DNA of 64,000 nt, from NCBI GenBank assembly GCA_942493035.1, contig OW818666.1, positions 3,028,702-3,092,701 of the forward strand, read 5' to 3'. A model generated the notes under the pieces. It did not search any database, was not told the DNA's origin, and was given only the letters and a program-made list of their open reading frames with translations. Of the stretch, positions 4,017 to 59,478 are shown piece after piece (position 1 is the stretch's first letter; each line of letters begins with the position of its first letter). Position numbers and translations under genes: made by a program. The stretch comes from an uncultured Spirochaetota bacterium. Its GTDB lineage: Bacteria > Spirochaetota > UBA4802 > UBA5550.

Positions 4017-4571
4017 ATGAAACCTTCGTATAACATCCATATCGGCGAATACTACGCGAGCAAGACTCCGGCAATTATTACAACAATTCTCGGCCCATGC
4101 GTGGCAGTGTGCATCTATGATAAGACAAAAATGATCGGCGGGATGAACCACATCCTTATGCCTGGAGATGCCCCTGACAGAGAAAATATAATCGACTCAC
4201 GATATGGCATAAATGCCATGGAACTTCTGATTAACCAGATGATGAAACTCGGCGCCAACAGATATAAACTTACAGCAAAAGTTTTCGGAGGAGCAGCAAT
4301 ACTCTCCTCTATTTCCGGCGAATTCAACATGGGTATAAGAAATGTTGAATCGGTAATACAATTTCTTGAGATAGAAAAAATTCCTATTATCAATTATAAT
4401 TTCGGAGGATTTGATTCCAGAAGAATTTACTATCACTCCGACACCGGTGAGGTTCTGATAAAAAGAATCAAATCAAGAGAAGCACTTACTGAAGACTCAG
4501 TTGTCCGGGAAAGACGGCTTGAGGCTGAAAAAAGAATTAAGAAAACACCGTCAGTTATATTTTTCGACTGA
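4017..4571 (+). CDS. cheD: CheD-like chemoreceptor glutamine deamidase, paralog 1.
   Basis: The ILGPCVAVCIYD and GGMNHILMPGD motifs match the CheD catalytic Cys/His region. RBS-like AGGAAAAAG precedes the ATG. ~70% identical to the ORF at 32014-32568. Confidence 0.8.
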   Translation: MKPSYNIHIGEYYASKTPAIITTILGPCVAVCIYDKTKMIGGMNHILMPGDAPDRENIIDSRYGINAMELLINQMMKLGANRYKLTAKVFGGAAILSSISGEFNMGIRNVESVIQFLEIEKIPIINYNFGGFDSRRIYYHSDTGEVLIKRIKSREALTEDSVVRERRLEAEKRIKKTPSVIFFD

Positions 4572-17995: not shown

Positions 17996-19069
17996 ATGAG
18001 TAATTTAATGAACTATATAGTTAAAAACAAGGAAATTTTTATTGGTCTTGAAGATTCTAAAAAGACTTGGAAAGTATGTGTACGAAGCGGAAAAGTAACA
18101 ATTCATGAGGCGAGTATGCCAGCTGAATATGAAGTACTTAAAAACTATTTTAACAACAAATTTGCGGATTGCCTCATACATGTAATGTATGAGGCCGGAT
18201 TTAGGGGATTTGGATTACACGATCAGTTGAAATCTGACGGATATGATTGTATTGTTACGCCTCCACATACTGTAACTCAAGAGAAAACACAACGGCAGAA
18301 AAATGACCGTATAGACTGCCGGAGGCTGGCAAAGAATCTAGAAAGTGGCGATTACCATATCTGCCACGTTCCAGATCGAAAGCGCCGTGAAGACCGCCAG
18401 ATATCACGTTTATATGAGCAATTACAACGCGATATAACAAGGGAATGTAACAGGATCCGAAGGGCATTGGAGTTTCACGGCTTAGACAATCAGTTTCAGG
18501 GAGGCAGTTGGTATCGAACACATTATAAAAAAGCATACGAACGTATTCCCGAGATGGATATTTCTTTATCACTGAAATTTGACTTCAGTATTATGTTCAA
18601 TGAATTGTTTCATCTCTGGGAACTTCAGAAACAGGTGCTGAAAGAAATTCATATATTGGCAAAGTCAGAAGCATACAAAGAAGATGTTGACTTGCTAAAA
18701 AGCGCACCTGGTATCGGTATTCTGACAGCAATCAGACTTGTTCTGGAGTGGGGAAGTCTTGACAGGTTTCACAATAAAGCTGAATTCTCAAGTTTTCTGG
18801 GATTGATCCCAAGTGAATATTCATCAGGTGAAACGGAACGGAAAGGTCATATTACAAAACAGGGAAATAAATTAGTACGGTCATGGCTTGTTGAGTGCGC
18901 ATGGCGAGCATTGAAATATGATCCGGTACTACTGCAAATATTTAATAATGTTGTTAACAGTTCGGGAAGCAGAAAGAAAGCGATTGTTGCAGTTGCAAGA
19001 AAACTGGCTATTCGTTTACGGACTCTGTTAATTCATAGAACACCATATACGGTTGGTTTAGTTCATTGA
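17996..19069 (+). CDS. IS110-family transposase: DEDD RuvC-like N-terminal domain plus Transposase_20 C-terminal domain.
   Basis: 357 aa. N-terminus FIGLEDSKKTWKVCV. C-terminal SFLGLIPSEYSSGETERKGHITKQGNKLVRSWLVECAW motif typical of the IS110/IS116/IS902 family. Strong SD AAAGGAGGT 7 nt upstream. Confidence 0.9.
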   Translation: MSNLMNYIVKNKEIFIGLEDSKKTWKVCVRSGKVTIHEASMPAEYEVLKNYFNNKFADCLIHVMYEAGFRGFGLHDQLKSDGYDCIVTPPHTVTQEKTQRQKNDRIDCRRLAKNLESGDYHICHVPDRKRREDRQISRLYEQLQRDITRECNRIRRALEFHGLDNQFQGGSWYRTHYKKAYERIPEMDISLSLKFDFSIMFNELFHLWELQKQVLKEIHILAKSEAYKEDVDLLKSAPGIGILTAIRLVLEWGSLDRFHNKAEFSSFLGLIPSEYSSGETERKGHITKQGNKLVRSWLVECAWRALKYDPVLLQIFNNVVNSSGSRKKAIVAVARKLAIRLRTLLIHRTPYTVGLVH

Positions 19070-32013: not shown

Positions 32014-32568
32014 ATGAAACCCACAGTAAATATACATATTGGCGATTACTACTCCAGCAGAACACCCGTTGTTATAACTACAGTCCTGGGGCCATGCGCA
32101 GCAGTCTGCCTTTATGACGCGGATAATAAAATAGGAGGGATGAATCATATACTTCTTCCGGGAGATTGCCCCGCCGAAATGGGTGATGGTGATTCCAGAT
32201 ATGGTATAAATGCCATGGAACTTCTGATAAATCAGATGATGAAACTCGGAGCTAACCGCTACAAACTCACTGCAAAAATATTCGGAGGGGCGTCCATTCT
32301 CTCCACAGTATCTTCCGAGTTCTGCATGGGGATGAGAAATATCGAATTTGTAGTGGATTTTCTGTTAACAGAAAAAATACCAATACTCAACTACAATTTC
32401 GGAGGAGTAGACTCCCGGAGAATATTCTACCACACCGACACAAGCGACGTGCTTCTAAAAAGAATAAAATCAAGAGAAGCAATCAACGAATTTGCCCATG
32501 TCCAGCAGAGACGGCTCGACTTAGAGAAGAGGATAAAGAAGTCATCGAAAATTGTTTACTTTGACTGA
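32014..32568 (+). CDS. cheD: CheD-like chemoreceptor glutamine deamidase, paralog 2.
   Basis: VLGPCAAVCLYD and GGMNHILLPGD motifs. ~70% identical to the 4017-4571 product, with the same C-terminal extension KRIKSREA...RRL.LEKRIKK. Confidence 0.8.
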   Translation: MKPTVNIHIGDYYSSRTPVVITTVLGPCAAVCLYDADNKIGGMNHILLPGDCPAEMGDGDSRYGINAMELLINQMMKLGANRYKLTAKIFGGASILSTVSSEFCMGMRNIEFVVDFLLTEKIPILNYNFGGVDSRRIFYHTDTSDVLLKRIKSREAINEFAHVQQRRLDLEKRIKKSSKIVYFD

Positions 32569-43412: not shown

Positions 43413-43949
43413 TCAGTTTTTAAGTATTTCGTATAATTCTTTGTGGGATTTTAACTGGGCATAATCAGCAGCAGTAAAGCCGGAATGGTTTTTTATTTTT
43501 AAATCAGCCCCATGGCTAAGAAGAAGCATTACAGCCTCTTTATGGCCATTTTCTGAAGCAAACATAAGCGCTGTTATTCCATATGTATTTACAGCATTGA
43601 CATCCGCGCCATGAGAGATAAGAATTCCGATTATCTTTATCAAATTGTCATCTGAAGCGTACATAAGAGGGGTAAGTCCCATATTATCTTTTTTATTTAT
43701 ATCCGCGGCATTTTTAAGCAGAAATTCTACTACAGCAGGATTGTTACTCAAAACCGCATACATCAGCGGAGTCATCCCTTTATCATCCCTGTAATTTATA
43801 TCTGCACCATTGAGCAGAAGCTTTTCAATTGCTGGAATATCACCCTTCGATGATTCACGTATAATATCATTATTTTCTGCTGCACTGAGAGAAAAAGATA
43901 TCATTAAGACAGATAGAACCGTCAGCAGAACTGCTATTTTTTTCATCAA
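43413..43949 (-). CDS. Secreted ankyrin-repeat protein.
   Basis: 178 aa. Signal peptide MMKKIAVLLTVLSVLMISFSLSAA. At least 4 ANK repeats (GMTPLMYAVLSNNPAVVEFLLKNAADIN, GLTPLMYAS..., GITALMFASENGHKEAVMLLLSHGADL). Confidence 0.75.
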   Translation of the reverse strand: MMKKIAVLLTVLSVLMISFSLSAAENNDIIRESSKGDIPAIEKLLLNGADINYRDDKGMTPLMYAVLSNNPAVVEFLLKNAADINKKDNMGLTPLMYASDDNLIKIIGILISHGADVNAVNTYGITALMFASENGHKEAVMLLLSHGADLKIKNHSGFTAADYAQLKSHKELYEILKN

Positions 43950-44068
43950 ATACTCACCGGTAAATTTAATTATTCTTTTATAATGTAGTCTTCAACGAAC
44001 ACAAGCTCTTTTTTTAGGCATATGCCTATTTTCACAGGAAACAACTCTTAATTGGCATCTTATATAAA

Positions 44069-44112
44069 GATCAGACACTTAAGATATAGTGTCTGATCTT
44101 TATATAACAGGT
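44069..44112. repeat. Perfect 18-bp inverted repeat ATATAAAGATCAGACACT-taagatat-AGTGTCTGATCTTTATAT, followed by a T-rich run.
   Basis: Read directly. AT-rich stem-loop upstream of the ankyrin gene start; could be an operator or a weak terminator. Confidence 0.4.
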
Positions 44113-44231
44113 GAATTTTTTTATTTTTTTATAAGAGTTATCCAAAAAAATTCATACCAGGCCCGGAGCTGAGAGGTTTGATTATTATATTATAAGCGAG
44201 AAATTGTCATACAATGTAACCGGTAAAAAAA

Positions 44232-44321
44232 TGTAACTGCTCATAAACCGGTGGAATTTTATCTCCGCCGCGCCACGGTTGTGCAGAGAGCAATTTTACT
44301 ACCAGTTTATGAGCAGTTACA
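44232..44321. repeat. Palindromic element. 21-bp outer IR TGTAACTGCTCATAAACCGGT / ACCAGTTTATGAGCAGTTACA around a CTCCGCCGCGCCAC core. Same family as 46899-46963, in opposite orientation.
   Basis: The reverse complement GTGGCGCGGCGGAGATAAAATTCCACCGGTTT matches GGCGCGGCGGAGATAAAATACCCCCGGTTTT at 46927-46963. Confidence 0.55.
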
Positions 44322-44414
44322 AAAAAAATCAAAAAAAATCTTCATAAAAAACTTGACAGATTACATGTTAATACGTTTTTTCAAAATAATATTAAAAGGA
44401 ATAATCAATAATAA

Positions 44415-44507
44415 ATGAAACCCGTTCAGAGCACATCACCAATTTTACAAAACCTCATCCTCGTGGTCGTGGTGGTCAGCTCATGCATATACCGGTTTAT
44501 ACCGTAG
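44415..44507 (+). CDS. Branched-chain amino acid attenuation leader peptide (30 aa, MKPVQSTSPILQNLILVVVVVSSCIYRFIP).
   Basis: Short ORF with an ILV-rich run (LILVVVVV; Val codons GTG GTC GTG GTG GTC). An intrinsic terminator follows 30 nt downstream, and the acetolactate synthase gene lies further downstream on the same strand. Confidence 0.5.
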   Translation: MKPVQSTSPILQNLILVVVVVSSCIYRFIP

Positions 44508-44537
44508 GGTAAGTTATTATATAATAAACAATAAAAG

Positions 44538-44575
44538 CCCCCGCCGGTGTAAACCGGCGGGGGCTTTTTTAGTTT
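44538..44575 (+). terminator. Intrinsic terminator/attenuator: AAAAGCCCCCGCCGG-tgtaaa-CCGGCGGGGGCTTTTTT.
   Basis: 11-bp GC stem followed by a 6-T run, preceded by an A run (potentially bidirectional). Confidence 0.7.
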
Positions 44576-44682
44576 ATGGTTGTTTAAATGTGCTGAGTAT
44601 CCGCACATACAGATTCCGGATTATTGAAAAGTGATTCAGTAATATTTTTTAAACATGCATTTTACCGTAAAAAAAATATTAC

Positions 44683-44713
44683 ATATCCCCACCCCCTTCG
44701 GCGGCGGGGATAT
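44683..44713. repeat. GC hairpin ATATCCCCACCCCC-ttcg-GCGGCGGGGATAT followed by a T run. Same motif family as 51156-51195.
   Basis: Read directly. Could be a second attenuator/terminator within the ilvB leader. Confidence 0.4.
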
Positions 44714-44739
44714 CAGAGTCTTTTTAAATTATAGGGGAG

Positions 44740-44908
44740 TTCTGAAAACTCAATATTTAATGGGGTAAAGGCCAGCCTTTTTTCGACATCCTACCGGTGC
44801 TGGCAGGCGAACATCGTGTTCGCTCGGGCGGTAGCCCCTTTCTAAGCCCCGCAGGGCTTCCTGCGGTCCCGGAAACGGAGTTTTTGGAACCGCCCTATAA
44901 TAAGTTAA
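44740..44908 (+). ncRNA. Unclassified structured leader-RNA candidate upstream of the acetolactate synthase gene. A closed multi-stem domain.
   Basis: Closing stem TTATAGGG...CCCTATAA. Internal stems GAGTT-ctgaa-AACTC, GCCAGC...GCTGGC, GGCGAACA-tcgt-GTTCGC (a 7-bp stem), GGGCGGT...ACCGCCC and CCGCAGG-gcttc-CTGCGG. GC content is well above the local background. Confidence 0.3.
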
Positions 44909-44958
44909 GGAATAAATACTTAAAGTAATTACTTTATTTCAAATTAAAGGAGCCCATT

Positions 44959-46668
44959 ATGAAAATGTCAGGTGCGGAAATCATCATCAAATCTCTTGAA
45001 AAACATGGTATAGAAACTGTCTCAGGGATTCCGGGAGGAGCAGCTCTTCCTCTTTATAACGCGCTCTACTCCAGCAGCATAAAACATGTACTTGCCCGGC
45101 ACGAACAGGGTGCGGGTTTTATTGCACAGGGGATGGCGCGCTCTACGGGGAAACCGGCTGTATGCATAGCAACATCAGGACCTGGAGCTACAAATCTCAT
45201 CACAGCAATAGCCGATGCCAAACTCGACTCAATCCCGCTTGTTGCAATTACATGCCAGGTTCCACTCTCGCTCATAGGAACAGATGCCTTTCAGGAGGTT
45301 GACATGTACGGATTAACTCTATCCATCAGCAAGCACTCACTCCTTGCAAAAAGTACAGAGGAACTCCCCATGATTATAAACGATGCATTCCGTATTGCAC
45401 AGAGCGGCAGACCGGGACCCGTTGTAGTTGATGTTCCAAAAGATATATTAAGCCGCATAATAGAAATCGATGGACTTCCGGAACCTGCGGAGATCTGTAA
45501 CTATTCAAAACACTCGAAGCTTCCATCAGGGATCTGCCGTGCAATCGCAGAAAAAATTAATTCATCAAAACGTCCGGTACTATACGCAGGCGGCGGCATT
45601 ATCGCATCATCCGCATTTGAAGAGCTTAAAGCTCTGGCAGAAAAAAATTCAATCCCCACAGCAGTAACACTAATGGGACTGGGATCTTTCCCCTGTGACA
45701 GCGAACTATACCTGGGAATGGTTGGCATGCACGGGAACCACAGCACAAATATAATATTTGATAATGCCGATCTGATCATCTGTATCGGAAGCCGTTTCAA
45801 TGACAGAACCACGGGAACTGCAGCCCACTTCGGCAAAAAAGCAGATATAATACATATAGACATAGATCCATCGGAGATAAACAAAATCAAAAAGACATCT
45901 ATATCGCTGGCATCTGACGCGAAGAGCGCCATTGAATTTATTATGCCTCTAATTGAACAAGACAGCAGAGAAGAGTGGCTCGAAACATGTAAAACAAAGC
46001 GCGCCCGTTATGACAAAAAACATCACGGTATAGAAGCTCACCCCGAATCGATAATCAAAGCGGTAAGCGCTGCAGCCGATAAAGACGCAATAATCACTAC
46101 AGATGTTGGCCAGCACCAGATGTGGGTAGCAAGAAATTATCCGTTCAAAACAGGGAGAAATTTTCTTACATCTGGAGGTCTTGGAACAATGGGATTCGGC
46201 CTTCCCGCAGCAATAGGTGCGGCTCTTGCTAATCCCGATAAACAGGTAATCTGTTTCAGCGGAGACGGTTCAATTCTGATGAACATACAGGAGCTTGCAA
46301 CTCTTGCCGATCTTAAACTTAATGTAAAAATAATACTGCTGAACAACGGCCAGCTTGGACTTGTGCGCCAGCAGCAGGAGCTGTTTTATAATAAAAATTT
46401 TATTGCCACAACATTCATCACAGCTCCTGACTTTCCGGAGATTGCAAAAGCTTTCAATATAACCGGTTTCGGCATAGATTCAACAGCACCGAATTCAATG
46501 ACCATCGAACAGTGTATGAAAGTACCCGGACCGGTTCTTATAAATGTTCCGGTTCAGGAGGAATACAATGTATACCCCATGGTTCCGCCGGGCGAATCAA
46601 ATATTGTAATGATGAAAGGTGAAGAGATAGAAATGAGTGAGCCGTTGAAAAAAGCTGTGTCTGAATAA
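44959..46668 (+). CDS. ilvB: Acetolactate synthase large (catalytic) subunit, ThDP-dependent.
   Basis: 569 aa. GIPGGAALPLYNAL, HVLARHEQGAGFIAQGMARSTGKPAVCIATSGPGATNLITAIADA, the GSRFNDR region and C-terminal ThDP-binding GDGS...NNG. SD AAAGGAG. No ilvN-like small-subunit ORF follows. Confidence 0.9.
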   Translation: MKMSGAEIIIKSLEKHGIETVSGIPGGAALPLYNALYSSSIKHVLARHEQGAGFIAQGMARSTGKPAVCIATSGPGATNLITAIADAKLDSIPLVAITCQVPLSLIGTDAFQEVDMYGLTLSISKHSLLAKSTEELPMIINDAFRIAQSGRPGPVVVDVPKDILSRIIEIDGLPEPAEICNYSKHSKLPSGICRAIAEKINSSKRPVLYAGGGIIASSAFEELKALAEKNSIPTAVTLMGLGSFPCDSELYLGMVGMHGNHSTNIIFDNADLIICIGSRFNDRTTGTAAHFGKKADIIHIDIDPSEINKIKKTSISLASDAKSAIEFIMPLIEQDSREEWLETCKTKRARYDKKHHGIEAHPESIIKAVSAAADKDAIITTDVGQHQMWVARNYPFKTGRNFLTSGGLGTMGFGLPAAIGAALANPDKQVICFSGDGSILMNIQELATLADLKLNVKIILLNNGQLGLVRQQQELFYNKNFIATTFITAPDFPEIAKAFNITGFGIDSTAPNSMTIEQCMKVPGPVLINVPVQEEYNVYPMVPPGESNIVMMKGEEIEMSEPLKKAVSE

Positions 46669-46750: not shown

Positions 46751-46898
46751 GTCTATACAGATATTCATAACCCACTTTATTAAAGTGATGTAGAGCAGAG
46801 CGAAACCGGGGGATTTAAAGTTTCAACCGCGCAAGTGCCAGGAAGAGAACAATAGATCCACCGTTATTTGTGCTTTCATCTTTATTGTATCTTCTCCT

Positions 46899-46963
46899 AA
46901 ACCAGTGGGATATTGCTCTCCGCCGCGCCACCGGCGCGGCGGAGATAAAATACCCCCGGTTTT
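46899..46963. repeat. Palindromic element with a perfect 27-bp core CTCCGCCGCGCC-accg-GCGCGGCGGAG and outer IR AAACCAGTGG / CCCCCGGTTT.
   Basis: Read directly. Homologous to 44232-44321. Confidence 0.55.
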
Positions 46964-47052
46964 AAGCAGTTCCCCTTTATTTCATTTCAATTACTCAATA
47001 ATTACTTGCAATTATTCAAATATAATTTATCATTATAATATATCATACTTAA

Positions 47053-49128
47053 ATGGAAAACATTAAAATGCGGTACGAAAGAAACAGTGTAATTAAAAAT
47101 ATAATAATTGCAGAAGAACTGAGAAAGAACATTGTCACAATCTCCGACATGATGTTCCCGATAATCTACTCTGAAAATATTGAAAAAACTATCGATTCTA
47201 TTTTACTGGAAACAGAGAGCAGCACACTTCTTACAGTTCTTATAATACCTGTTGATCAATATAAAAATATATACAAACATCTGAATTTAATCGATTATTC
47301 CAGAATATTTTACCAGATGCTTCTTATAGGATCGGAAGAGGCTCTTGACGATCAGAATCTGGACAGGTTGTATCATATCAGTGATTTTCTTCCCGAGACT
47401 GCCACCGAGAAAAAACTGAAATTTGTAATAAACAAATCTCTATCCATAATAGAAAAACACTTTCAGAACGAACAGAAAAAAAACTGGTATTTCAGCAGAT
47501 TAACAGACGCGCAGAGAGACCAGGAGGATCTGATCAACATCGGGAAGTCGCTCTCCGGTGAAAAAGATATGGAGAAGCTCCTGCGGCTTATACTTTATCT
47601 CAGCAAAAAAATTACAGGCGCCGATGCGGGAAGTATCTACCTTGTGGAAGAGGATGAAAACGAGAAGAAGCGTCTCAGATTTAAATATTCACATACATTT
47701 TCAAGAGAGATCCCCCTTGAAGAATTTGTAATGGATATGAACAAGAAATCTATCTCCGGTTATGTAGCTGTAACCGGTGAAGTTCTCAACCTCCCCGATG
47801 CCTATAAAATTCAGGAGCTTGCACCATATTCATTTAATCCTTTTTTTGACAGACAGCACAGCTATATCAGCCGATCAATGCTTGTTGTCCCGATGAAAAA
47901 TCATATGGACCAGATAATCGGAGTTATACAGCTCATTAACAGCAAAGAGGATCATTCCGGACTAAAAAAATATGAGAATGAAGCCTTCGAAATTAAACTT
48001 GAAAATCTTGCAGATTTCGATCAATACGTTGTTACCTTTGATGAAAGATACAACAGTCTGCTCGAAGCAATCGCAGGTCAGGCTGCTATCTCCATTGAAA
48101 ATAACAGACTTATCAACCAGATACAGAAACAGTTCGAAGAATTTGTCAAAGCATCAGTAACCGCCATAGAGTCACGGGACCCTGCAACTTCCGGTCACTC
48201 GTTCAGAGTTGCCCAGATATGCAAGGAGATGGCGGCAGCTGTAAACGAAATGCATTCAGGTTATCTTAAAGATTTCAATTTCAATGAAAATGATATTAAG
48301 GAGCTGGAGTTTGCCGCTCTCCTCCACGACTTCGGAAAAGTATATATAGATCTGAACATTTTTAAAAAAGCAAAAAAACTCTATCCTAAAGATCTTGAAA
48401 ACTTGAAGCTCCGTCTCGATTACCTTTACCGGTACCTCGAACTTGCGTACTTCGCGAAAGAGATGGAGATACTGCGTGAAGGGCTAAACTTTAATAAACC
48501 ATATGAGGAAGAACTGAGCAGAATACGGTCAGAGAAAACAGCAAAACTTACCCGCATAATTGAGATAAAGGATGACCTGGTAAGTCTTAACGAACCGACT
48601 GTTACAGACCGTGATCCCGATAAGGTTCTGGAAGGGATTCTGCATGAAATTGAAAATATCGAATGTATAGATATTACCGGACATCATGTAGATATACTCA
48701 CCGACAACGATAAAGTAAACCTTCTGATAAAACGAGGGAGCCTCAACAATGAAGAGCGTCTGGAAATTGAAAGTCATGTTATTGAAACATACAAATTCGT
48801 AAGCAAAATTCCATGGCCGCCGGAATATAAACGGATACCCGAAATTGCAATGCGCCACCACGAGAAACTCGACGGTACAGGTTATCCCGATGGACTGAAA
48901 GGAAAAGAGTCCATATCTCTTCAGTCAAGAATGATGGCGATAGCTGATATATATGACGCACTCACAGCACAGGACAGACCGTACAAAAAATCCGTACCGA
49001 TCGATAAAGTAGTGAAAATACTCAAAGAGGAAGCGGACAACAACAAACTCGACTCGGACCTCGTAGACCTTTTCATAGATGCAAAAATCTATGAAAAAGT
49101 ATCACCAACAGCAACATCCGAAAATTAA
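47053..49128 (+). CDS. GAF-domain HD-GYP phosphodiesterase (c-di-GMP-specific PDE family) with an N-terminal domain of unknown function.
   Basis: 691 aa. GAF-like region (GADAGSIYLVEEDE...VIQLINSKEDH). HD motif AALLHDFGKV. GYP motif HHEKLDGTGYPDGLKG. Confidence 0.8.
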   Translation: MENIKMRYERNSVIKNIIIAEELRKNIVTISDMMFPIIYSENIEKTIDSILLETESSTLLTVLIIPVDQYKNIYKHLNLIDYSRIFYQMLLIGSEEALDDQNLDRLYHISDFLPETATEKKLKFVINKSLSIIEKHFQNEQKKNWYFSRLTDAQRDQEDLINIGKSLSGEKDMEKLLRLILYLSKKITGADAGSIYLVEEDENEKKRLRFKYSHTFSREIPLEEFVMDMNKKSISGYVAVTGEVLNLPDAYKIQELAPYSFNPFFDRQHSYISRSMLVVPMKNHMDQIIGVIQLINSKEDHSGLKKYENEAFEIKLENLADFDQYVVTFDERYNSLLEAIAGQAAISIENNRLINQIQKQFEEFVKASVTAIESRDPATSGHSFRVAQICKEMAAAVNEMHSGYLKDFNFNENDIKELEFAALLHDFGKVYIDLNIFKKAKKLYPKDLENLKLRLDYLYRYLELAYFAKEMEILREGLNFNKPYEEELSRIRSEKTAKLTRIIEIKDDLVSLNEPTVTDRDPDKVLEGILHEIENIECIDITGHHVDILTDNDKVNLLIKRGSLNNEERLEIESHVIETYKFVSKIPWPPEYKRIPEIAMRHHEKLDGTGYPDGLKGKESISLQSRMMAIADIYDALTAQDRPYKKSVPIDKVVKILKEEADNNKLDSDLVDLFIDAKIYEKVSPTATSEN

Positions 49129-49134
49129 TTTTAA

Positions 49135-49215
49135 TCACTCCCTTCCCCTTCTCACCAAGGGGAAGGTGCCCAAAGGGCGGATGGGGAGGCGGATGGGGCG
49201 GTTCGGATGGGGGAC
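49135..49215. repeat. GC-rich REP-like repeat unit downstream of the HD-GYP gene. Same family as 31596-31940.
   Basis: TTCCCCTT-ctcacca-AGGGGAAGGTGCCCAAAGGGCGGATGGGGAGGCGGATGGGGCGG, compare CTCACCATGGGGAAAGGTGCCCGGCGGGCGGATAGGGGCGGGGCG. Confidence 0.55.
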
Positions 49216-49452
49216 AAACCACATCTATTCTCATTATTTAACACAATCTTTACACAACTGCACTTAATACCGGTTTGACAAAATTGTATCATTTTTATCT
49301 CATGATAACATCTGATATCGTATCCTCAAAACTCCGTTTCGAGGAAGGAGAGAGCCCTGCGGGACTTCTAAATGGGCTTCCACCACTTAAACCCTATTAA
49401 GATCAGGTTATCAGGACTGTCTTTAAAATAATAACATCCGGAGTAAACATAA

Positions 49453-52479: not shown

Positions 52480-52512
52480 CTCTCCCCCCCCTTAGTAAAA
52501 GGGGGTTATTTA
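52480..52512 (+). terminator. Terminator hairpin CCCCCCCCTTAG-taaaa-GGGGG after rluD.
   Basis: Shares the loop sequence TAGTAAAA with the ilvB terminator at 46726-46749. Confidence 0.5.
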
Positions 52513-52923
52513 AAACAAAACACTCTCCACTTTCTTATAGATACTTTTTGCAAATTCATAAAAAATTTTAGCGTCTTCAATATCCGGTTTCCCGTTTGGC
52601 ATCAAACCCAAATCTCCCGGGTATCTGGATTCGATGTAGAGCCTGTTCAAACTATCAAGAATATCATCTTCAATAATTTCCAAAAGATCCAATACCTGAC
52701 TTTTCAATAATATTAAGTCATGTTTTTTCGGTATTTTGCGGTTGTTATATTCAAGCATTGCTTTTAGTGATTTTTCTACTGCCTGTTGAGCATGAAAAGC
52801 GACCATATGTGTAAAATAATCATTATGAATTATCTCTTCAATTAACTTCAGATCATCAGACGCAGATTTTAGCCATTCAATTGCCATAGTTTTATTCATA
52901 ATAAAGATATTCCATTTTGACAT
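52510..52923 (-). CDS. hepT: HEPN-domain toxin (HepT-like) of a HEPN/MNT toxin-antitoxin pair.
   Basis: 137 aa. R-x5-H motif (NRKIPKKHD) and ESRYPGD. Overlaps the upstream nucleotidyltransferase gene. Confidence 0.7.
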   Translation of the reverse strand: MSKWNIFIMNKTMAIEWLKSASDDLKLIEEIIHNDYFTHMVAFHAQQAVEKSLKAMLEYNNRKIPKKHDLILLKSQVLDLLEIIEDDILDSLNRLYIESRYPGDLGLMPNGKPDIEDAKIFYEFAKSIYKKVESVLF

Positions 52924-57547: not shown

Positions 57548-57839
57548 AGGGGTTTCACTCCTTAAATCCCGTAAAAAAAGTATATCTGCATCGAGCAGAA
57601 ATTTAATCTGCACATGCATCATCAGTATTCTACTGAAGGTGCATCAAAGTTTCTAAAATTATATGCTGTTTTTAATAATTCGAAGATATTTAAAATATTA
57701 TATTTTAACGTAAAAAGATCGTAATTGGCCGTAAACCGTCGACATTCTATCGCCGCCGTGCCTTTGGCGCAGCGGGAGCAGTTTTACAAACGGTCTATGA
57801 ACACTTACAATAAATCCTGCATTAAAAGGAGTATTCCAG

Positions 57840-58601
57840 ATGGGGAGAATAATTTCTGTTTCCAATCAGAAAGGTGGTGTTGCAAAAACTACCACAACAG
57901 TAAATGTGGCTGCTTTCCTGGCCGACAAGGGGAAAAAAGTTCTAATTATAGATATAGATCCACAGGGTAATGCCGGTTATGGTATCGGTATAAATGCCGA
58001 GGAGATGCAGACAACTATATACGAAGTTATGATAGGAGAGATTCCTATTGAAGAAGCTATCTTCAAGTCTGACATTGAGGGACTATCGATAATCCCGGCT
58101 AACATACATCTATCCGGTGCACAGGTCGACCTGCTTGACACTGACGAGAAAGAATTTATACTCAAAAAAATTCTGGCTCCTGTAAAGAAGCATTACGACT
58201 ATATATTCATAGATTGTCCCCCTTCCCTGGGAGTACTGACTCTGAACGCCCTGGTCGCGGCTGATACAGTTTTAATTCCGCTTCAGTGCGAGTATTACGC
58301 TCTGGAGGGGATAAGTCAGCTTCTTCGAATTATTGTAATGGTTCAGGAACGGCTCAACAAGTCTCTTAAAATTGAAGGTGTTGTACTTACCATGTATGAT
58401 CCAAGAACAAATCTTGCACAGCAGGTTGTTAATGACGTAAGAGAGTATTTCAAGGAAAAAGTTTTCAAGACAGTAATCCCGCGTAATGTAAAACTATCCG
58501 AAGCTCCATCTTTCGGGAAACCAATTGGACATTATGACAAAACATGTCCCGGAAGTATAGCTTACGAAAAACTCGCTGAAGAGGTAATAAACAATGACTA
58601 A
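57840..58601 (+). CDS. parA: Chromosome-partitioning ATPase ParA/Soj.
   Basis: 253 aa. Deviant Walker A NQKGGVAKTTT. DIDPQGN. Start overlaps parB (58594). Confidence 0.9.
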   Translation: MGRIISVSNQKGGVAKTTTTVNVAAFLADKGKKVLIIDIDPQGNAGYGIGINAEEMQTTIYEVMIGEIPIEEAIFKSDIEGLSIIPANIHLSGAQVDLLDTDEKEFILKKILAPVKKHYDYIFIDCPPSLGVLTLNALVAADTVLIPLQCEYYALEGISQLLRIIVMVQERLNKSLKIEGVVLTMYDPRTNLAQQVVNDVREYFKEKVFKTVIPRNVKLSEAPSFGKPIGHYDKTCPGSIAYEKLAEEVINND

Positions 58602-59478
58602 AAAAGCATTAGGCAAAGGACTCGGAGCTATTATCTCCATGTCCCCCGCATCCGTAGAAGAGATTGAAAACAACGTTGTAAACAATAAAGACAGAATCAG
58701 GGATCTGGATATGTCCAAAATTATCCCTAATCCTGATCAGCCGAGAACATTCTTCGATGAAAATGAAATCACCGGCCTTGCCGAATCTATAAACGCAGTC
58801 GGCATAATCCAGCCTATTATTGTCAGAGAAAAAGACGGGCTCTTCATCATTATAGCAGGTGAAAGAAGATTCAGAGCATGCAAACTCAACGAGATGAAAA
58901 AAATCAAGGGTATTGTAATAGAGGCTGACGAAGAACAGAACTTCTCCATGGCTCTGATAGAAAATATCCAGAGAGAAAATCTTAATGCAATTGAAGAAGC
59001 TAAAGCCTATAAATTGATGATCAACAGATTTAAAATGAAGCAGCAGGATGTGGCAAAGAAAGTAGGTAAAGACAGAACTACTGTAACCAACACCCTCCGC
59101 CTTCTCAACCTTCCGGAAGAGGTGCAGGAGGGGATCATCGATAAAAGAATCAGCGCGGGACACGCAAAGGTTCTTCTCTCTCTTGAAGATCCTGAAAAGC
59201 AGCTTCGTCTATTCAATGATATAGTTGAAAAAGGTCTTTCAGTAAGATCACTTGAACAGATAATTTCACCCGAAAAAAATGAAAACGGCAGTAACGGGAA
59301 AGGCACAGAGCAGAAAGCAGTACAGGCAAAAAGCCCGCAGATAAAAAAGATGGAAGAGGACCTTATAACAAAGCTGGGAACAAAAGTAGAAATCAGACAT
59401 TCAGGAAGCAAAGGAAGAATTGAAATAAGCTACTATTCACTCGATGATTTTGAAAGAATTATGGAGAAGATAAAATAA
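58594..59478 (+). CDS. parB: Chromosome-partitioning protein ParB/Spo0J.
   Basis: 294 aa. IIQPIIVRE...IIAGERRFRA ParB box. HTH region QQDVAKKVGKDRTTVTN. Confidence 0.9.
   Translation: MTKKALGKGLGAIISMSPASVEEIENNVVNNKDRIRDLDMSKIIPNPDQPRTFFDENEITGLAESINAVGIIQPIIVREKDGLFIIIAGERRFRACKLNEMKKIKGIVIEADEEQNFSMALIENIQRENLNAIEEAKAYKLMINRFKMKQQDVAKKVGKDRTTVTNTLRLLNLPEEVQEGIIDKRISAGHAKVLLSLEDPEKQLRLFNDIVEKGLSVRSLEQIISPEKNENGSNGKGTEQKAVQAKSPQIKKMEEDLITKLGTKVEIRHSGSKGRIEISYYSLDDFERIMEKIK

Follow-up and report, generated by a model that had tools for sequence, protein, structure and literature searches.

Biosynthetic acetohydroxyacid synthase genes of enterobacteria are preceded by short open reading frames (ORFs), ivbL ahead of ilvBN and ilvL ahead of ilvGMEDA, that carry a run of valine or of isoleucine, leucine and valine (ILV) codons and have an intrinsic terminator behind them. 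Classical attenuators such as those of trp, his and ilv decide between termination and read-through kinetically and co-transcriptionally. The same architecture is found in the Rfam families His_leader, Thr_leader, Leu_leader and Phe_leader, and in the Corynebacterium ilvB-II motif and other actinobacterial ilvB leaders an upstream ORF (uORF) enriched in branched-chain amino acid (BCAA) codons is linked to terminator and antiterminator stems (PMC10272879, PMC1262725, PMC11857589). For spirochaetes, our literature search returned no paper joining leader peptides, attenuators and this group; the sole spirochaete precedent that it yielded is a weakly characterised, Leptospira-only "ilvB motif" (WRC-14-1) with seven representatives, initially listed as a weak riboswitch candidate (PMC8632094) and since taken instead for a BCAA-rich uORF that has three or more Val codons in a row (PMC10272879). 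Here we analyse a leader from an uncultured Spirochaetota bacterium (assembly GCA_942493035.1, contig OW818666.1, positions 3,028,702 to 3,092,701; this whole stretch of 64,000 nucleotides (nt) is henceforth the window), in which a Val-rich ORF and a terminator precede a gene encoding the large subunit of acetolactate synthase (ALS). An earlier note, made from the letters of this DNA alone, had proposed an ILV leader-peptide attenuator controlling ALS, and the alternative antiterminator and compensatory changes described below support that proposal. We consider it very likely that the element is a ribosome-mediated transcription attenuator, setting the expression of a monocistronic biosynthetic ALS gene by the supply of charged tRNA-Val and, probably, of charged tRNA-Leu and tRNA-Ile.

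The leader, its terminator and the acetolactate synthase gene

The leader ORF encodes MKPVQSTSPILQNLILVVVVVSSCIYRFIP, 30 codons closed by UAG, and its translation agrees with the earlier reading of Leu-Ile-Leu followed by five Val codons (Table 1). The terminator, which the earlier note had described as a strong GC stem with a run of six T, begins 26 nt past the leader stop and has 11 G-C pairs in its 16-bp stem and a 4-nt loop; leader and terminator together fold much better than shuffled sequence (z = -7.3). The regulated gene downstream encodes a protein of 569 amino acids with the Pfam domains TPP_enzyme_N, TPP_enzyme_M and TPP_enzyme_C. The choice between a biosynthetic and a catabolic enzyme, which the note had posed as a check, falls on the former: ALS scores 669.7 bits against the NCBIfam biosynthetic-type model TIGR00118 (cutoff 538.35), whereas against the catabolic AlsS models it reaches 322-345 bits, far below their cutoffs (510-551). 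ALS is thus of the biosynthetic, not the catabolic, type.

Table 1. Features of the ALS leader region, in window coordinates
Feature	Position	Strand	Basis or remark
-35-like TTGACA after A-tract, candidate leader promoter	44353..44358	+	tentative
Shine-Dalgarno-like AAGGAA of leader ORF	44396..44401	+	putative ribosome use
Leader ORF, 30 codons and UAG stop (44505-07)	44415..44507	+	ORF translation
Intra-ORF hairpin, 44429-32 with 44479-82 and 44435-41 with 44470-76	44429..44482	+	minimum free energy (MFE) fold; tentative
Codon run Leu-Ile-Leu-Val x5 (L14-I15-L16-V17..V21), CTC ATC CTC GTG GTC GTG GTG GTC	44454..44477	+	
Five Val codons of leader	44463-44477	+	
Region 2, antiterminator 5' strand CCGGTTTATACCGTAGGG; last four sense codons and UAG	44492..44509	+	inverted-repeat search
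Conserved A/T-rich spacer GTAAGTTATTATATAATAAAC..., TATAAT-like core	44510..44532	+	several invariant columns
Intrinsic terminator: 16-bp stem (44533-48 with 44553-68), GTAA loop, T6 (44565-70)	44533..44570	+	terminator scan
Antiterminator 3' strand: inner half of terminator 5' arm, loop and first 5 nt of 3' arm	44540..44557	+	
Post-terminator spacer with small hairpin TGTGC..GCACA	44571..44636	+	shared only with closest relative, L081
Lineage-specific insertion in the 5' untranslated region (UTR), ~290 nt	44637..44926	+	alignment to L081; approximate boundaries
AT hairpin of insertion	44639-82	+	
GC hairpin of insertion	44683-713	+	
170-nt domain bounded by inverted repeats of 24 nt (44728-51 with 44878-901)	44728-44901	+	
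ALS ribosome-binding site AAAGGAG	44946..44952	+	
ALS large subunit, biosynthetic type, 569 amino acids, regulated gene	44959..46668	+	Pfam, TIGR00118

The ALS proteins closest to that of the window (92-62% identity) come from metagenome-assembled genomes and metagenomes of uncultured Spirochaetota and Leptospirales, and the best relative among species-representative genomes reaches at most 54% identity. We fetched flanking DNA around ten ALS homologues and added one further locus, L088, by a metagenome scan with the 18-nt region 2 of the leader; the other 12 of the 13 matches from that scan lay in unrelated sequence and were dismissed as chance. The resulting alignment, A1, holds 13 sequences, namely the window and the leader loci of 12 relatives. 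The unit of leader ORF and terminator, spacing included, precedes orthologous ALS genes (92-62% identity) in 12 non-redundant uncultured Spirochaetota loci, and since ORF, terminator and spacing are kept in 12 independent loci, the arrangement is not due to chance. All 12 have TTGAC(A/T) with an A-tract, the ORF, the spacer and the terminator, and most also a Shine-Dalgarno-like site: AAGGAAT is kept in 8 of the 13 loci (the window, L081-L083, L098, L102, L103 and L105), and a GGAAA occurs in L100 and L101. TTGAC(A/T) and its A-tract lie at a similar distance from the leader ATG in all 13. In nine of the 13 loci the ALS ATG follows the T-run after 23-28 nt, essentially just the ribosome-binding site, as against 388 nt in the window and 103, 130 and 146 nt in three relatives; AAAGGAG stands before the ALS ATG in 9/13 loci, with the variants CAAGGAG in L100 and GAAGGAG in L105. 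A spacer of 23-28 nt leaves no room for a separate promoter, and transcription of ALS in those nine loci must therefore pass through the terminator.

The homologous leader ORFs of the 12 relatives span 28-31 codons and their peptides vary at many positions (for example MKPVLSPSTILLLNLVLVVVSSYTYRFIP in L083, and MKKLLQTSLVVLVLVNIVVVVVCADTYRFAP and MNQILGISLYFLNLLLVVVCSCTYRFMP in others), and yet start codon, frame, Val run and stop are kept in 13/13 loci while the codons vary. Every leader has a run of three to seven Val codons, flanked mostly by L, I or V (by N in the L100 clade), and every leader terminates in ..YR(F/L)xP-UAG. GTG and GTC make up 68 of the 82 Val codons across the 13 leaders, although no Val codon is rarer than these two in the genes of the window (14% and 11%, respectively). 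This codon choice fits a tuned stalling site, with RNA pairing as an alternative cause.

The terminator is preserved, with 96.6% of its positions paired over the 13 sequences, three compensatory pairs and a run of T5-T7 at every locus. The spacer between leader and terminator is unusually conserved as well (AATTATAtAAT with a -10-like core; A1 columns 99-120), and possibly serves as a pause site or as an aid to ribosome release. A palindromic mini-hairpin considered within it was rejected, its pairing being no better than that of shuffles.

The antiterminator and the case for attenuation

An inverted-repeat search identified an alternative pairing of 18 nt between region 2 and the terminator apex, in which 16/16 pairs form in the window. 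The earlier note had named the impossibility of any such alternative pairing as grounds for refuting its proposal, and had expected an antiterminator overlapping the Val codons; an antiterminator exists, but its overlap is with the final codons and the stop of the leader instead, so that its availability depends on where the ribosome stands. Its two strands pair at 96.6% over A1, and sliding the partner by 1-3 columns lowers this to 36-55%. Both partners have changed at four of the pairs, and the covariation score of the helix was not reached in any of 500 shuffles. Three of the four compensatory pairs (columns 87/142, 88/141 and 89/140) tie region 2 to bases of the terminator loop: TTTATA/TATAAA (region 2/terminator loop) has become TTAATA/TATTAA in L105 and TTTGCG/TGCAAA in L100, L101 and L104. 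In L100, CCGG/CCGG has further become CAGG/CCTG. Because the terminator leaves its loop bases unconstrained, the match to region 2 is not a by-product of terminator conservation. The two helices are mutually exclusive; in the window the terminator (-34.3 kcal/mol) is the more stable of the two, the antiterminator having -24.9 kcal/mol.

All 13 leaders were folded under a mask of 30 nt standing for the ribosome. With this mask at the last Val codon and RNA reaching to the 3' end of the antiterminator, the MFE structure was the antiterminator in 13/13. When it was placed on the stop codon, region 2 was masked and only the top of the terminator formed, again in 13/13. These results are consistent with the following course of events. 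Transcription would start upstream of 44415, and the leader ORF would be translated while RNA polymerase advances. With valine plentiful, the ribosome would reach the UAG and cover region 2, upon which the terminator hairpin and U-run would form and transcription would end before ALS. With valine scarce, the ribosome would stall on the GTG/GTC run with its footprint extending to about 44490, leaving region 2 free; region 2 would then pair with its partner strand as soon as this is transcribed, tie up the terminator at its loop and inner 5' arm, and let polymerase continue into ALS. In such a scheme, which presumes a kinetic coupling of ribosome and polymerase and a corresponding response in vivo, the terminating ribosome itself may act as the anti-antiterminator, making this a three-element design.

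The leader stop codon deserves separate mention. A proline codon before the stop is a slow-termination context, and such endings occur in the window leader (44502-44507) and in the leaders of L001, L002, L003, L007, L010 and L040. The variants read FIP, FAP, FTP, GNAP, AIAP and ACAP before the stop, and several belong to ILV leaders unrelated to this family, found at the nearest ALS homologues. Since the antiterminator sequences differ among these unrelated leaders, the shared Pro-stop hints at selection at the level of the peptide. That the near-invariant Pro-UAG is a programmed slow release, holding the ribosome on region 2 until the terminator forms and giving an acetohydroxyacid synthase seemingly devoid of a valine-sensing small subunit its principal control by valine, is a speculation that we find rather doubtful.

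Several observations weigh against attenuation as we describe it, or qualify the strength of its support. At equilibrium the complete transcript always prefers the terminator, even when the Val codons are masked, so read-through must rest on co-transcriptional kinetics. The classical region 1:2 helix (AAACC/GGTTT) is 92% paired over the 13 sequences and shows zero covariation. A tentative hairpin within the ORF, in which codons 7-9 pair with Val codons, may serve for pausing or correspond to "region 1"; it is 84.6% paired over the 13 sequences, with two pairs changed on both sides, all in one clade. In relatives the leader -35-like element is followed 17 nt downstream by TTnATT, a tentative -10 element, and the window has a poor TTTTTT there; a simple promoter scan did not call the leader TTGACA site. 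The 388-nt insert might hold a promoter or processing site that partly uncouples ALS in the window genome, and a promoter scan of this gap found no sigma-70-like site on the + strand. Finally, the 13 aligned sequences are related, so that the shuffle statistics overstate their independence.

Four other explanations have to be set against attenuation. If the ORF were an independent gene for a small hydrophobic peptide (membrane or toxin-like) with its own terminator, and ALS were transcribed separately, then the hydrophobic and conserved nature of the peptide and the 388 nt between terminator and ALS in the window would be readily explained. The short spacers of nine loci contradict this, as do the varying length of the Val run (3-7), the constant linkage of the unit to ALS, with no second copy in the window for a covariance model of A1, and the 3' end of the ORF, which is conserved including its third codon positions and covaries with bases of the terminator loop; we therefore regard an independent peptide gene as highly improbable. 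No more credible is a leader controlled by a ligand or protein (a riboswitch, T-box, guanosine tetraphosphate (ppGpp) sensor or RNA-binding protein) in which the ORF is incidental. Although ppGpp riboswitches occur at ilvB genes of other taxa (PMC10272879) and the Leptospira ilvB motif itself entered the literature as a riboswitch candidate (PMC8632094), an incidental ORF should not keep start, frame, Val run and stop in 13/13 loci while its codons vary, nor should the antiterminator strand coincide with its stop codon. Rfam lends such control no support either: no family matched at gathering threshold in the whole window, and a search at E<=10 over 43900-45100 returned no T-box, ppGpp or ilvB-type family, only sub-threshold leader-peptide families and terminator look-alikes, the best being His_leader with 36.1 bits at 44433-44572 (threshold 49), a match that is mostly terminator and whose regulatory codons differ.

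Control of ALS by the uORF without intrinsic termination, through Rho or translational coupling, perhaps operates in the terminator-less Leptospira ilvB motif, whose published sequences have a similar uORF and no U-run (PMC10272879 File S3). At the loci described here, a GC-rich 16-bp stem with T5-T7 is conserved with compensatory changes in 13/13, which makes such control very improbable. There is little to recommend, too, the idea that the structured gap between terminator and ALS (44576-44958), notably its 170-nt domain, is a second regulatory RNA dedicated to ALS. The domain does lie within the 5' UTR, and predicted structure is strong, with z = -5.7 for the gap and z = -4.3 for the 170-nt domain alone when compared with shuffles. 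However, the ~290-nt insertion that contains it is missing from L081, the closest relative (92% ALS identity), and from all compact relatives; partial copies of the domain occur in unrelated intergenic DNA, at 49328-49384 of the window (- strand; between the HD-GYP and isocitrate dehydrogenase genes, see below) and at ~5010-5110 of L102, in the ALS/HD-GYP spacer; its boundaries are 24-nt inverted repeats, as in a small mobile element; and it has no Rfam match in the searches given above. We conclude that the elements of the gap are, as judged by their distribution, no part of the conserved switch. The unusual gap of ~380 nt with hairpins and a ~170-nt domain that the earlier note had remarked upon is thus real (388 nt, structured), but it is a lineage-specific insertion outside the conserved device.

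Inserted elements and gene neighbourhood

The 170-nt element resembles a small non-autonomous mobile element. A second, dispersed family of ~95-nt palindromic repeats (GTAACTGCTCATAAACCGG...GCGCC..GGCGC...CCGGTTTATGAGCAGTTAC) has copies at 44232-44321, 46874-46971 (- strand) and 57710-57814 of the window and at 6150-6239 of L082; one copy lies ~30 nt upstream of the -35-like site of the attenuator and another between the ALS and HD-GYP genes. Right after the HD-GYP stop, 49128-49230 holds GC-rich repeats made up of GGATGGGG units and a CCCTTCCCCTTCTC/GGGGAAGG hairpin, and similar CCCCC/GGGGG palindromes are abundant in the intergenic DNA of L081, L082 and L102. Evidently, GC-rich palindromic elements are scattered through the intergenic regions of these genomes, and the ALS 5' UTR received one composite insert. 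An AT-rich inverted repeat with 30-nt arms (87% complementary) occupies 44050-44117 of the divergent intergenic DNA ahead of the ankyrin gene, and the ~180 nt around it are 76% identical to L081 549-731.

Two remarks of the earlier note on the genes next to ALS also proved correct, namely that no ilvN-like partner adjoins ALS and that an HD-GYP gene follows it. No ilvN-like small subunit was found by tblastn in the window or in the flanks of L081-L105 (3-4 kb on each side), using as queries eight ORFs directly downstream of distant ALS genes, at least six of which have the small-subunit motif by eye; the absence of an adjacent partner is thus a feature conserved across the clade. Pfam annotation of the larger window ORFs revealed neither alsD nor another ilv gene. 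The gene after ALS (47053-49128) encodes a GAF/HD-GYP protein and is followed by a gene for NADP-isocitrate dehydrogenase (IDH). Among the 12 relatives in which the gene after ALS is readable, 11 have HD-GYP in that place, L098 being the exception, and IDH follows it in the window and in five relatives (L088 is outside this count). A promoter-like sequence, ACTTGCAATTATTCAAATATAATTTATCAT (TTGCAA-N16-TATCAT, 47006-47033), precedes the GAF/HD-GYP gene and is kept in the ALS/HD-GYP spacers of six relatives (L081, L082, L083, L102, L103 and L105). Because the HD-GYP gene has this conserved promoter-like site of its own, we treat ALS as a single-gene unit, and co-regulation of HD-GYP by the attenuator was set aside as unlikely. 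Upstream, on the opposite strand, lie an ankyrin-repeat gene and two clostripain-like peptidase genes.

Farther away, 2057-38185 is a dense array of signalling genes, mostly on the minus strand, with at least nine paralogous PAS/GAF/REC sensor kinases bearing HisKA_2 domains, a REC-PAS-GGDEF protein and receivers that stand alone. Over 300 nt, identity reaches 76% between two CheD genes, one at 4017-4571 and the other at 32014-32568, and an IS110-family transposase gene (DEDD_Tnp_IS110 and Transposase_20; 17996-19069, + strand) lies within the kinase array. The window further contains a ParA/ParB partition gene pair (57840-59478) and a stand-alone HEPN-domain gene (52510-52923).

Relation to described ilvB leaders

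How far does this design extend beyond the clade? When the covariance model of A1 was searched against the window and the ALS loci, it gave a full-length match of 41 bits upstream of the ALS gene of Leptospira sarikeiensis (L010) and weaker matches upstream of ALS in Enterobacteriaceae, Xenorhabdus, Rheinheimera, Gilliamella and one deltaproteobacterium, including 22-29 bits at the Enterobacter, Trabulsiella, Kluyvera and Xenorhabdus loci. The ORFs at the weaker sites are ILV leaders, among them an ivbL-type (..AAVVVVRVVVVVGNAP) and an ilvL-type (..VVVIIIPPCGAALGRRKA) peptide. The nearest ALS homologues in other phyla also have ILV leaders, which are common upstream of this type of ALS. The ivbL peptides share the Pro-stop ending of the window leader, but beyond the codon run and a generic terminator there is no detectable homology between ivbL or ilvL and the window leader. 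Compared with these two, the window antiterminator holds the stop codon in its 5' strand and base-pairs with the apex of the terminator, loop included, the region 1:2 helix is unsupported, a single gene without a small subunit is regulated, and the host is a spirochaete. The Corynebacterium and actinobacterial ilvB leaders, which we set against the window leader by their descriptions, differ from it in sequence, phylum and operon (ilvBNC).

The Leptospira ilvB motif shares with the window the phylum, the gene association and a uORF with at least three consecutive Val codons, and its uORF MPVLGLSSYVLSTLVLVVVVVSSYIT, translated by hand from File S3 of PMC10272879, resembles the L083 leader given above. 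By contrast, it has no U-run terminator, and its downstream structure is another. A covariance model of the seven published sequences, built on an RNAalifold structure rather than the authors' own, found nothing in the window at E<=10, and L083 and L088 scored only ~10-12 bits against it. The window element therefore falls outside the Leptospira ilvB motif as defined, although it probably is related to the motif's uORF, with a different, canonical expression platform. The ilvB-OMG sequences (File S2) look unrelated by inspection. L010, on the other hand, is built like the window leader: immediately ahead of the stop codon stands region 2, GGCTTTACGCC, and its exact reverse complement is the terminator apex, GGCGTAAAGCC. 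At 4757-4915 of L010, upstream of ALS, the leader MKNIGLQSNLTLWVVLWMVVVVTLPWSGFTP is of the terminator type, unlike the published Leptospira ilvB motif. Leptospira may thus carry two kinds of ilvB leader.

Attenuation at this locus is an ordinary case of a well-known mechanism and leaves the understanding of attenuation unchanged. For annotation, it offers a signature consisting of a Val run followed by ..YRFxP-UAG that pairs with the terminator apex, and it illustrates that the insertion of palindromic elements can lengthen a 5' UTR with the switch untouched. An explicit terminator and antiterminator support the uORF reinterpretation of the Leptospira ilvB motif, and clear, covariation-backed leader-peptide attenuation of ilvB-type genes is extended to a clade of uncultured Spirochaetota.

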